From the NCBI RefSeq assembly GCF_033153115.1, contig NW_026889763.1, positions 19,344,001 through 19,408,000 on the forward strand: a DNA stretch of 64,000 nt, written 5' to 3'. Made by a program: the position numbers and the translations under genes. Under the pieces are notes generated by a model, which saw only the letters and a list, made by a program, of their open reading frames with translations, was not told the origin of the DNA and made no database searches. Positions within the stretch are counted from its first letter, which is position 1, and every line of letters begins with the position of its first letter. This stretch comes from Saccostrea echinata. Its lineage: Eukaryota. This document shows, piece by piece, positions 17,221 to 32,600 of this stretch.

Positions 17221-17485
17221 CTTTGTACGTCTGACTTTTTTTTCAGAATGAGAAAGTTTGTTTTTTCTCTACCTCTTTATATACCTTTTTCTCAAAATCT
17301 ATTTTTAGTCTCATCTATTTTTAGCTCTTTTAACTAGTATTATTCTCGACTATTTTTAGTCTCAACTTAATTTAATCTATTTTTAGTCTAATCTATTTTT
17401 TTTATCTCTTTGTTACTATAAATATAACAGCACCAGTGTCCTATGGAAAAAACCCCTTACCTTTGCATTAAGACTTCATCCAGGG

Positions 17486-17520
17486 TATAAATACAATCTT
17501 CTCTCCAGTTTGATTTCATT
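17486..17520 (+). promoter_or_regulatory. TATA + initiator module of the pPolB gene (one of nine such modules)
   Basis: TATAAATA at 17486, TCATT with its A at 17518, ATG at 17565. Confidence 0.6.
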
Positions 17521-17564
17521 CTGTTGTCAAAAAGTATTCAGACAGCAACACTTAAGAAAAAAAA

Positions 17565-20500
17565 ATGGAAAAGAAACCAGAGAAAGAATTAGATCTTAGG
17601 AAAAGAAATGCCTTGTACTTACAGAGAATACAGAAAGCTAATCGACATCAACAAGTACAGGCTTTACGGAATATACCTGAAGAAGAAGAACAATCCAGTT
17701 CATCATTACCACCACCACCTCATTCACTTCATAAACCGAAGACCATTTCTCAATATTATAAAGTGAGAAAAGATGTTACCAGGTATTCCCCAAAATTTAA
17801 AGCACAAGAAAATAATTACAAAATCAATTTTAAGGAATTTCCAGAGGAGGAAAACAAAGGATTTGTTCGGCAATTATTTTGAGACATGCTACAGAATGTC
17901 AAATATGAAATGCAGTGTAATCCTAACGATTATTTACGTTTGAACATACGTCACCCTTCTCTGGATTCTGACATTTCGTACGAGTTTACTCAATGTAAAC
18001 ATTTAAACCAGGATGTCATTTTAAACAAAATAGAAGCCGTCCAACAATCTAAAAAAGATTTTAAACTGGGTGACGGTGCCATGGAATTTAACATGTTTCA
18101 TGTGAAATATCCAGAAGGCAGTGGTGGAAATAAAGTCAAACACCTGATGGTCAATAAGGAGAATTTTCTTAAAGGAAAAAATGCATTGTCAGATCGACAA
18201 TCCCTGGGATAAGATGTGTTTAGCTAGAGCTATTGTCGTCACTCGGTTACACAGCCAAAAACCGGAACATCCAGAGAGTTTAGTTGAATGGGAAAAACAA
18301 TGGCTACGTATGCGAAAAGGAGATTTAAGAGCTAATGACCAGAAGAAGGAAGTTCTAGCTCTCATGGAACAAGCTGGCTGTGATAATCATCAGTCTTGTG
18401 GACCTGAAGAATGGGCGAAATTACAACAAGTGTTATATCCTCAATATCGACCGAAAATATTTCAGATCAAGTCTACCTCCTCTAAACTCATTTTTGAGCC
18501 CATTTACAAAGGCTACGGAGACGGAATTTTTTTGAATGTTCTGTTAAAAGATCATCATTATCATGCCATTTTATCCATGCCAGCTTTGACGGGCAACCCA
18601 TATTACTGTGATCATTGCGATGTGGGCTACAGAAACATCACAGGCCATCGATCCAAATGTCCTTTTCGATGTGATTTTTGTCTAGCGAACACCCATGTCC
18701 TAAAGACGGGAGCCAGATTACATGTTCTCATTGCCAAGGATTTTTTAAGAACAGAACTTGTTACGAAAATCATTTACGACCTTACAGTAAAAATACGACA
18801 ACATCCATCTGCAATTTAATGGGACGATGCCAACAATGTGAGAAATGGATGGCTAAAACTTTATTCGCTCATCACTCATGCGGAGGACGGAAACAATGTA
18901 AGATCTGTAAGAAAATCGTAGAAAATGATCATCAGTGCTACGTTCAACAGAAACCTCCCAAAAAGCAGAAAAAGGGAAAAGAGGAATTACAGTTTTACAT
19001 TTATTTCGATTTCGAATGTATGCAGGAAAACGGCATTCACGTCCCTAATTTATGTGTGGCACATCGGGTCTGTCAACATTGTAAGCACTTACCCATTGAG
19101 GATCCTTGTCCTCATTGTCAACACATGGGACCCCGTCAACACGTGTTTCAAGGATCAAATACTTTAAAAGACTTCATGGACTGGTTATTACAAACCACCC
19201 GCAAAGGAAATAAGAATTCCGCCTTATTACACTACCAGGCCATCATCATTGCTCACAATTTCAAAGGATACGACGGACAGTTCATTTTAAATCACCTGGT
19301 GCATTCTGCCTGCTAGAAACCCACCGTCATCCAGAACGGGAGTAAAATCTTATGCATGGAAATCTGTGGATTGAAATTCATCGATTCTTATAATTTTTTA
19401 CCTTTTCCTCTGTCCAAAATGCCTTCCGCTTTCCGATTCACCGAACTGAAAAAAGGATATTTCCCTCACTTTTTCAATACGGTACAGAACCAGAATTACG
19501 TGGGACCTTATCCCCCTCCAGATAAATACAATCCGGACGACATGACTATTAGCGGACGACAAGCATTTTTTCAATGGTACGACCAACAAGCCGGAAAAGT
19601 GTTTGATTTCCAGAAGGAATTTTTAGAGTATTGTATTTCCGACGTCGATATTTTACGACGATGTTGTGCTCAGTTTAGATCCACCCTCAAGAGTTTGGTC
19701 AATGTAGATCCCTTTCAGGAATCTATCAATTTTGCCAGTGCAGCCAATTTAGCTTACCGTCGAGGACTCATGCTCGAAGATACCATTGACATCATTCCTA
19801 ACCTGGGATATCAACCTGCTCTTCAATATTCGGCCAAAGCCTGTCGATGGTTAACCTGGTTGAGTCAAAGAAGCGGATCTCACATCCAGCATGCGAGAAA
19901 CGGAAGAGAACTCATGATCGGAAATTATACTGTAGACGGATATCAAGAAGATACTTGCACCGTCTATGATTTTTTTAGATGTTATTGGCATGGATGTCCC
20001 ACCTGCTATCCCAAGCTACAGACCGAAACTCATCCTCACCGGACTCAATATACTTACCAACAATTATATGAAGAAACTTTAAGAAGGAAATCGGTCTTAG
20101 AGCAAATGGGGTACAATGTCACCTGTATCTGGGAGCACGAATTCGATGAACAAGTGCAAGGAGATACGGTTTTACAGAATTTTTTATCAGCCCTAAACAT
20201 ACCAGATCCTTTAAACCCCCGAGAGGCTTTGTACGGAGGTCGGACCAATGCTACACGCTTGTATTGTGAGGAAGGAGATATGAGATACATAGACGTGTGT
20301 TCTCTCTATCCTTACGTGTTAAAACACAGAGCTTTTCCTGTGGGGCATCCTCAGATCATTACCGATCAATTCCTTATTTTGGACTCATTCACTGACGGGT
20401 TTTACCACCCCAAGGCCTCTATCACCCGGTTTTACCTTATCGCACGGGAGGCAAGTTATTATTTCCCTTATGCCGAACTTGTGCAGAACAACAGGACTCT

Positions 20501-30023: not shown

Positions 30024-30442
30024 AAATTGTTATTGTTGTTTTTATTGTTGTTTGTTTGTTGTTCTCAAAATAAAAAAAAAGAAAAAAATAATACTTGCTG
30101 TTATTCTTTCAATACGTAGAGGACTGATGACGTCACAATGAGTAGCATTTTTTCTACTGACTTGCTGTCTGTTATAAGTGTTCTATGTGATAATAAAAAT
30201 CATTATGTGTTAATAATATCTTCATAAAAATAAGAGTTCTATGTTAATAAAATGATTATGTGTAAAATAAAAAAATGAAAATTAAATTAAAAAAAAAAAT
30301 TAAAATATCTACAAAAAAAAAAAATAACAGTGACCTGGTGTTATTAGACGTTTCTATAACCAGATGTTTTTTAAAAGGTATCTTTTCGAATCATTGAAGT
30401 GGCCCTTAAAAGGACCGTTGTTGTTTTTTTTTTCTTTAGGGT

Positions 30443-31098
30443 TTACTCCCTGGGACGTCGGCCTCGCCCTCGACCCGCAAACTCCCTTCTCTCGGAGAGA
30501 GGCCTCCTAGGTGGAGGAGGAGGTGGTGATGTGGGAGGGGCAGGAACCGGTTCAGGCGCACCATACCTGCACAGGGGGCAGCCCTCATTCCGGTCAATAC
30601 GTCTGGCCGCACACAGGTAGCAGGCAGGCCTCTGTAAACATCTGCCGCACATGAAATTGGACTGCTCATCCTGACATAAACACAAGACACAGTATCCCTC
30701 CTCCACAGGCGCTTGTATCCCCCACACGGGGATACAACCCTGAAAGACCACACGGTCCTGCTCGGGTGGTGGTGCTGCGTTCAGGAGGCGGTGGACCCTT
30801 GCCGATGGTGACGAAGGGGGGGGGATTCCGGGGAATCCGCCAGGTCGAAATTCCGTCCCTCCTCTTCTGGCCGCGGATGGTATATTGTCCTGTAATCTGG
30901 TGCTGCTGGTCGTGTTCTACTATATGGGCTGTGCCTTGATCTTCTTCGGGTGGTGAAGCCGGCAAGATCAGGGACGCGAATTCTTCCTATATTCAGGACC
31001 GCATACTCTTGCCCGGTGTTTTGGTTCCTTACAATTAACTGACAGATCACCTCCACGCCTGGTTCGATGAAAATATTTTCGTGGAATAAAGAAGCCAT
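30443..31098 (-). pseudogene. GC-rich RING-finger-like accessory protein (about 218 aa if the G-run 30816-30824 gains 1 nt)
   Basis: CVLC..CGRC..CYLC..CPLCR (8 Cys) with Arg-rich and Ser/Pro-rich segments. TATA + TCATT module at 31164/31130. Confidence 0.65.
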
Positions 31099-32600
31099 CG
31101 TCGTATCGCTGAATCAGATAGCTAACGAATGACAGTTAACAGCTGACAAGCGTCGGTATTTATACACACAGCGCGAGCCGAAAAGAGAGCACCCAAAAGC
31201 CCGGATGACGAACAGCTCAAAAAATCATGGAGAATTCAAATTTGTGTTATTCTGTGTTTGTGAATACATCTATTGGAGTAAATAAGTTATTATGGAATGA
31301 TATATACTTTCAAACCCTCCAGTGAAAGAATGAAGGTAAGTTTTGAGGATGATTTCACAGTATTATTCATACATGACATTCCTCCGTTGTTTAGAACAGG
31401 CTCATTCATGTCGAACCGAAGGGCTAACCTTGACTGACCTGAACACATAAAATAAGAAGTTAAGCTATTTTAAAAGTGTGACACAAAGAAAACTTAATGT
31501 ATATAATAAGATTGAACCTAAGGAAAAGTGTTGATATGGTTTTTAAATCAAAAGAATCGTTGCAAGTGGAGAAATAAACTTAGCGTCGGTTTAGGGATAA
31601 AGACAAGGGAGGTCAAAGGACAGCCATTTTCAGAAAATCATTGTATAGACTTGTATAGAGCCTATAAGATTTTTTTTGCAATCCTGATCTTTTATGATAA
31701 AAATTTTGAAATGAATACAATCGGAAACTTATAAAAATCATTTGTATCTACTTTATTTCCAATGGGAAAGTCTACATTTTAAAAGAAAAACCCTATTCAT
31801 ACACGCAGTGTTGGTACAACAGACACCGTGTTACACACATACATTTGATTTTTGTATTGTAACCTTATGAAAATAGAATTGTGAGATCAATACAATCGGA
31901 AACTTATAAAAATCATTTGTATCTACTTTATTTCCAATGGGAAAGTGTAGATTTTATAAAAAGACCAAAAAAATCTCAGCGTCTTAAAAAGGACACAAGA
32001 TGGCGTCATACACTAATTACAATGACGTATTGTAATTCTTTTATTGCATTATTTCTTGAAGACTAACAATTGTTCAAACTGCCAAATTCTCCTTTGAAAT
32101 CTTAATCGATCCGCTACTAGAGCCATCCATTTCACTTTTCCGATCATCGGGGGTGGTAAATCGTAATTTTTTTTATTGAAACTCGTATTAAAAGTCACAC
32201 GCAAAGTTTGATTTTAGATATTAAACTATCATAGCTTTTTTAAGAGTAGGCTTAAGTTAAGTTTTTTTTTGCACAAGGTGTTTTTAAGACTCTTGAATCG
32301 GTGCCAAGATTAGGTACATGACCTGTGCAGGTGTTTTAAGAATCAGATCTCGTGCTCAATATATATTATTATAGTAACAAAAAAAAGTGAAAAAAAAAAT
32401 AGTTTTTCAGACTTGAATCGATGCCAAGATTAAGTACATGATCTGTGCAGGTGTTTTAAGAATCTCATCTCGTGCTTTTTTCTTTTTTTTTTTGCACGAG
32501 ACCCTTAAGTAAAAAAGGTATATAAACTCAGAGTTGAGTCATTTATAGCATCAGTCTTTCAGTGAATACTTGCAGAGAATAGATAGGAAGGACACAAGTA

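Follow-up and report, generated by a model that had tools for sequence, protein, structure and literature searches.

Probable host-type core promoters at almost every gene of a Maverick/Polinton family in the Saccostrea echinata genome

Introduction

Among the described systems most similar to the element considered here, a Maverick/Polinton within 64,000 nucleotides of Saccostrea echinata DNA (contig NW_026889763.1, positions 19,344,001 to 19,408,000, forward strand; this whole stretch is called the window below), are the vertebrate Mavericks (PMC8097293) and the adintoviruses (PMC8502044). They share with it the (AGT)2//(ACT)2 ends, a 6-bp target duplication and the gene order polB, ATPase, integrase, minor capsid, PW, capsid and protease, whereas the window element differs from them in having all of its core genes on one strand. 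Transcription of animal Mavericks has hardly been described. In the sections consulted, neither of these papers describes the elements' own promoters, and we found no promoter map of an animal Maverick in the open-access literature; the supplements of papers, which lay outside this check, may hold promoter annotations.

Core promoters that pair a TATA box with an initiator (Inr) are known from metazoans and from invertebrate viruses. The Drosophila Inr reads TCA+1GTY, with TATAWR at -32 to -28, and a strict TATA box is rare in human promoters, at about 3.5% (PMC5580651). The early promoters of white spot syndrome virus (WSSV) and of baculoviruses combine TATA with (a/c)TCANT or CAGT (PMC1550435). 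We describe below a similar module at almost every gene of the Saccostrea element, and give base-level predictions of its transcription start sites.

Results

The original prediction listed nine pairs in the window, each a TATA box followed at 32-34 nt by a TCAKT initiator 10-50 nt upstream of an ATG. All nine pairs of coordinates and their spacings were exact, and each of the nine initiators is followed by its first ATG at a distance of 10-48 nt. Scanned for TATAWA..TCAKT at 32-34 nt, a narrow pattern that was itself derived from those sites, the 18 kb element yielded 11 pairs. They share 9 distinct initiators, every one of which stands at a gene start. Among 300 dinucleotide shuffles made block by block, the average was 0.32 pairs and the highest count 4. 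In the flanks, 46 kb in all, 3 such pairs turned up at 2 sites, of which one lies within a TA microsatellite. When the spacing was widened to 28-38, the element contained 14 pairs against 1.19 expected (0/300 shuffles reached 14) and the flanks contained 14; under each of five pattern definitions tried, the observed count was reached by no shuffle among 300. The modal spacing was 33, with intergenic modules at 32-34 and modules embedded in coding sequence at 30-32.

Conservation in sister copies, which had been proposed as a check on the modules, bore them out. The genome of 923 Mb gave 168 DNA candidates for the capsid gene, of which 40 were scored; our sister set is the DNA around 20 of these 40 listed capsid matches, hand-picked across 84-96% identity, and a module was counted as kept if it lay no more than 130 nt from the mapped gene start. 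In near copies, identity to the window was 882/888 for TATA, 728/740 for Inr and 2872/3218 for spacer positions, and in subfamily B the corresponding values were 172/174, 144/145 and 492/628. The motif columns were thus about 99% identical to the window while the spacers had diverged to 89% (near copies) or 78% (subfamily B). Also, the first ATG after a module opened an open reading frame (ORF) of 60 or more codons in 193/229 cases, compared with 212/1418 after a lone TATA. Two points weigh against too generous a reading of these figures: copies whose alignment failed to span a module were left out of the identity counts (0-16 were kept per module), so that the counts favour conserved modules, and the copies are related to one another, so that counts across them are not independent.

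On the plus strand, the module of pPolB (17486..17520; ATG 17565) was kept in 13/13 mapped places, with a spacer just 69% identical across copies, and that of the packaging ATPase (21566..21601; ATG 21609) in 15/18. The module of gene 22309 (22255..22290; kept in 18/19) has its TATA overlapping the final codons and stop of the ATPase gene, and the next one (23226..23262; kept in 18/20) precedes gene 23274, PM-like by position, and probably serves gene 23642 as well. Further modules belong to the minor capsid (26241..26276; ATG 26289; kept in 17/18) and to the PW-position gene between the minor and major capsids (27503..27538; ATG 27558; 19/20; spacer 64% identical in subfamily B). The names minor capsid, PW and PM were assigned by position alone, after the published vertebrate gene order (PMC8097293). 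A proposed paralogy of genes 22309 and 23274 was rejected, as the match (E 0.001) aligned only 15 residues.

The modules had also been taken to support three accessory genes as real. This stood for the RING-finger gene (minus strand, 31128..31164; ATG 31098), whose module was kept in 6/6 places, and less fully for the right accessory repeat gene (plus strand, 32519..32555; first ATG here at 32601; kept in 5/8, the misses being internal repeats) and for the left accessory gene (minus strand, TATA+TCATT at 17247..17283; ATG 17220; 2/3 mapped places). The RING gene (30436-31113, minus strand) is split over two frames in the window copy and evolves fast (about 70% nucleotide identity among copies), its promoter being well kept; an additional copy of the module occurs at loci L013 and L046. 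Genes added in other subfamilies bring a module of their own: in one subfamily-B copy, where four additional ORFs separate the membrane gene from the minor capsid, 3/4 of these stand directly behind a module. A module of the left-accessory type reappears at another position in subfamily B, and comparison of the left accessory gene with the subfamily-B ORF that follows this module (E 0.006) only suggests that the left accessory gene and its promoter were relocated together. As to the copies themselves, about 14 protease matches in the genome have identical scores and suggest a recently spreading subfamily, and tandem and inverted partial duplications were seen at L035-L037, L046-L047 and L019-L021.

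The original prediction found no module before the integrase, the major capsid or the protease, and proposed nine transcription units, some of them polycistronic. For the major capsid, a module with spacing 33 and its initiator 34 nt before the ATG (28115 in the window) is present in 19/20 sister places. Immediately before this ATG every one of the 20 sister places is about 46 nt longer than the window, and the module is missing here (site 28066..28090, plus strand) because this copy privately lost those nucleotides. For the integrase, a module within 130 nt was found in 0/18 sister places; when 450 nt upstream were viewed, TATAAAA..TCAKT at spacing 31 appeared 233-299 nt before the ATG in 18/19 rows, the window included. 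The window's candidate, 24301/24332 (24301..24334, plus strand), lies inside the coding sequence of gene 23642, and the integrase ATG at 24629 is the first ATG downstream of it, after an ATG-free leader of 297 nt. Synonymous recoding of gene 23642 produced any module in 2/1000 trials. The two longest ATG-free gaps of the window core are 23274-23642 and 24311-24629, the integrase leader falling within the second, and only 0-10% of coding windows of the same length are ATG-free. The leader was ATG-free in 12 of the 18 module-bearing rows. A further candidate, 25619/25649 at spacing 30 (25619..25651, plus strand), lies within the chromodomain codons of the integrase ahead of a small membrane-protein gene (ATG 25699), for which it is a weaker promoter candidate, and was kept in 18/18 sister places. 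At least 12 modules can be counted in the family, the capsid having one and the integrase probably one too, and the map of nine units with polycistronic integrase and capsid is not supported. By this survey of the copies, only the protease and gene 23642 appear to be without a module throughout the family, and a downstream-cistron mechanism would be needed by these two alone.

We extended the comparison to 20 elements hand-picked from 60 full-length capsid matches, with capsids 25-33% identical to that of the window; three short metagenome contigs served solely as queries to reach such distant families. TATAAAA..YCAKT at exactly 31 nt occurred in 10/21 distant capsid genes, 132-257 nt before the capsid ATG and inside the PW-position gene, with an ATG-free leader in 9/10. 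The bearers fall into four lineages, 38-57% identical, in which the residues encoded over the initiator differ (VI, VS, FS, LI, TS) while its nucleotides are unchanged, and synonymous recoding yielded a module in 3-43/1000 trials for each of 6 genes tested. These observations suggest that capsid promoters are hidden in the coding DNA of four distant lineages to an extent that codons do not explain. In the distant families another module, a weaker one, is embedded where the minor capsid gene ends and would serve the PW-position gene.

Gene 23274 (ORF 23274..23645, plus strand) has a leader of 14 nt, and its start is followed by 365 nt in which all frames lack an ATG, the longest such gap in the core; it ends in an ATGA start-stop overlap with gene 23642. 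This overlap was found in 20/20 places, a module of gene 23642's own in 0/19, and at least 307 nt upstream of the 23642 ATG were ATG-free in 15/20 rows. Gene 23274 is a leaky-scanning candidate, and we infer that leaky scanning past its start is the best fit for expression of gene 23642.

For the protease, the absence of a canonical module was confirmed: one lies within 130 nt in 0/19 sister places, and no TATAWA module was found in 21 distant cases, which gave one relaxed match. The capsid stop and protease start overlap as TAATG (29518..29522, plus strand), an overlap kept in 17/20 places of the family. At the distant capsid-protease junctions ATGA was seen in 12/21 and 5 more lay within 10 nt, as compared with 1 overlap in 20 PW-capsid junctions. 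The most likely single route to the protease, although we would put it at somewhat less than an even chance, is stop-start reinitiation on the capsid mRNA; or else the protease may come from a weak embedded promoter or from a spliced RNA. Several observations tell against reinitiation. Tight junctions are common, with 13/20 PW-capsid junctions within 10 nt; the integrase has both an ATGA overlap and a module; and TTGAA, complementary to the host 18S loop that we take to correspond to h26, was found in 0/9 capsid tails against 2.3 expected. As for the other routes, the capsid coding sequence contains a TATAAAA that precedes the protease ATG by 209 nt, with a poor initiator, TCACT only at spacing 36 (29311..29349, plus strand). 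This TATAAAA was kept in 19/19 copies and the pair in 12/20 rows, and a 7-codon upstream ORF intervenes. Splice-acceptor-like tracts before the protease were not enriched (3/9 against 2.1 expected), and no GT..AG joint into the integrase or protease was found in assembled contigs aligned to the window and to one subfamily-B copy, contigs of a kind unable to reveal transcript starts. Two poly-A loose ends were set aside, one matching a genomic A-run and the other lying 21 nt past an AATAAA but in A-rich DNA.

The TATA-Inr pattern is not universal among the Mavericks of this genome. Three module-less distant elements (L094, L112 and L116) have a gene of the TATA-binding protein (TBP) family just before the integrase, and the TBP-carrying families use TATAAG, found in 16/25 upstream windows against 2.7 expected, with ATAAGA 309-364 nt before the protease. 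Many further TBP matches are scattered over the genome; the window's element gave no TBP match and no RNA polymerase match. Eight elements in four lineages (among L080-L091, L110 and L114) have neither TATA-Inr nor TATAAG before their core genes, and their top upstream 6-mer was GCGTAA (9/49 windows against 1.1 expected). In the non-coding parts of the window's element we also noticed CRE-like palindromes, TGACGTCA, at 26111, 30128 and 33953; they number 1-5 per copy stretch and are clustered in several distant canonical families (L098-L106).

The element itself (16370..34359; about 18 kb; ends AGTAGT...ACTACT) is decayed, its genes in this copy being interrupted by stops and frameshifts. It has terminal inverted arms of 99 nt that are 97% complementary, and is flanked by the 6-bp target duplication GTAATC (16364-16369 and 34360-34365). 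A Pfam scan of 40 fragments detected DNA_pol_B_2 (PF03175, E 4e-24; protein-primed PolB), the integrase domain rve (PF00665, E 6e-10) with a Chromo domain, and a RING finger in the accessory gene; the packaging ATPase gave a weak Pox_A32 match from a fragment only (E 0.012). The tentative adenain-like assignment of the protease draws on a weak match to S273R (E 0.08) and on an HW..C motif. The major capsid had no direct Pfam or PDB match, and a PDB profile search with the capsid alignment was likewise empty; the capsid of a sister copy lies nearest to double jelly-roll (DJR)-like clusters (atlas feature score 0.98), with PF21738 on 14-24% of the cluster members. By its AGT-ended terminal inverted repeats, 6-bp duplication, PolB, integrase and DJR-like capsid, all sequence characters, the element is classed as a Maverick/Polinton. 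A scan of viral contigs gave no match.

The element is set within a satellite of about 140-150 bp units, whose array occupies 16055-16368 and 34361-35100 and recurs inverted near 61-63 kb. Elsewhere in the window, an apparently intact Helitron (45848-52527) encodes a Rep-PIF1 helicase of 1837 aa and is preceded by an ORF of 386 aa with a Herpes_teg_N domain.

Discussion

We consider the modules to be, probably, core promoters for host RNA polymerase II (Pol II), one for almost every gene including those for the capsids. For each mRNA, host TFIID and Pol II would begin at the A of TCA; at abutting genes, the codons of the upstream gene would contain the promoter and the leader would be kept free of AUG. 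The mRNAs would run to a few shared poly(A) signals and be nested, 3'-coterminal and translated from the first ORF only; candidates for these signals are AATAAA sequences following GT-rich tracts at 26049..26054, predicted as the common 3' end for the ATPase-to-membrane-gene block, and at 30069..30074, likewise for the capsid-protease block (both plus strand, each kept in 12 copies). For gene 23642, ribosomes would scan leakily past a start lying only 14 nt from the cap. The protease would most likely arise through stop-start reinitiation on capsid mRNA, failing which a weak embedded promoter or a spliced RNA would supply it. The element is likely, on this scheme, to make nearly every protein from its own RNA through the machinery of the host.

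The assignment to host Pol II, already made in the original prediction, is backed by the enrichment and position of the modules, by conservation of motif over spacer, by the lack of a TBP or RNA polymerase match in the element, and by likeness to the host's H3 promoters, which have TATA..TCATT at 31-32 (one H4 class has the pair at 30/32). Histone repeats of several classes (8.2, ~10, ~11 and 11.8/14.6 kb; L062-L074) occur in the host, and their promoters differ. Some observations do not sit easily with it. The host H2A, H2B, H1 and most H4 promoters are without the pair at 30-34; the modal spacing of 33 is 1-2 nt longer than in host H3; and it falls just beyond the interval of -32 to -28 reported for TATA (PMC5580651), the modules spanning 30-34. 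The slightly long spacing is also what might be expected if a factor from a virus or helper virus, and not plain host TFIID, read the motifs: virophages use the promoters of giant viruses (10.64898/2026.07.28.741278), and the TBP-carrying Mavericks of this genome could act in trans. But those TBP families use a different box, TATAAG, while the box of the window family is canonical and matches host H3, and we regard such a factor as highly improbable. Chance matches in AT-rich DNA can be discounted almost completely; TATAWA is common here (1418 lone sites across the copy stretches) and the narrow pattern was picked post hoc, but no shuffle reached the observed counts under five definitions, the spacing peaks at 30-35 across copies and all nine modules stand at gene starts, and because of the shuffles and the spacing peak we take this reading to be ruled out.

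The embedded modules deserve separate scrutiny. The intergenic modules could be real and the embedded ones mere coincidences of coding, with the integrase expressed through reinitiation or splicing. Such a view would account for the ATG present in 6/18 integrase leaders (five subfamily-B-type rows and one other), for the retained ATGA overlap and for the difference between embedded (30-32) and intergenic (32-34) spacings. Our proposal also has against it the membrane-gene module, which arises in 75/1000 recodings, the minor-capsid-embedded modules of distant families (32-119/1000), and the 11/21 distant capsid genes that have no module. Coincidence is nevertheless unlikely, in view of the recoding results for the integrase and distant capsid modules, the residues that vary over a fixed TCAKT in four lineages, and leaders as free of ATG as few coding windows of their length are. 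The nine-unit map, in which polycistronic mRNAs would carry integrase, capsid and protease as downstream cistrons, has in its favour that gene 23642, the integrase and the protease each start on the stop codon of the gene before, and that no module lies within 130 nt of any of these three genes in any copy. We judge it improbable, since the capsid module occurs in 19/20 sister places and the integrase module in 18/19 rows, the latter arising in only 2/1000 recodings.

The promoter type itself is textbook, and for that reason the surprise is limited; what stands out is a canonical module at almost every gene, capsids included. In contrast to the virophages and the TBP-carrying Polintons, the family is indicated to do without a helper virus and without a late factor of viral origin, and the paired TATA/Inr motif offers a practical aid for calling small accessory genes. 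More speculatively, and with rather little confidence, we suggest that the Mavericks of one host run three transcription grammars (TATA-Inr; their own TBP with TATAAG; neither), with promoters in neighbouring codons under dual selection, and that all three withhold a promoter from the protease, which would come from capsid mRNA through a stop-start reinitiation without a calicivirus-type TURBS (a ribosome-binding site upstream of termination), setting the ratio of protease to capsid.

Comparison with known systems places the modules closest to the metazoan TATA+Inr promoter, which has the same motifs in the same order with a sequence-free spacer and tight spacing (PMC5580651); the element differs in having a perfect pair at nearly every gene, with a spacing mode of 33 and embedded modules at 30-32. 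WSSV and the baculoviruses are likewise nuclear DNA viruses of invertebrates with a host-type TATA and initiator near the ATG, but in them it is early genes that carry the module, structural genes having other signals (PMC1550435), whereas no separate late promoter is evident in the element, because its capsid genes carry the same module. The TBP-encoding Polintons also have a box before their core genes, TATAAG(A), in contrast to the window family, which is without TBP and has a canonical box plus initiator. Finally, the TURBS of caliciviruses and influenza B likewise involves an overlap, UAAUG or AUGA, at the junction from a long capsid ORF to a minor virion protein (PMC10275272), and the stop and start at the capsid-protease junction lie within the distance of about 20 nt that characterizes it; the present case differs in that it concerns a DNA element, has no conserved 18S-complementary motif, and shows such overlaps also at genes with a promoter of their own.

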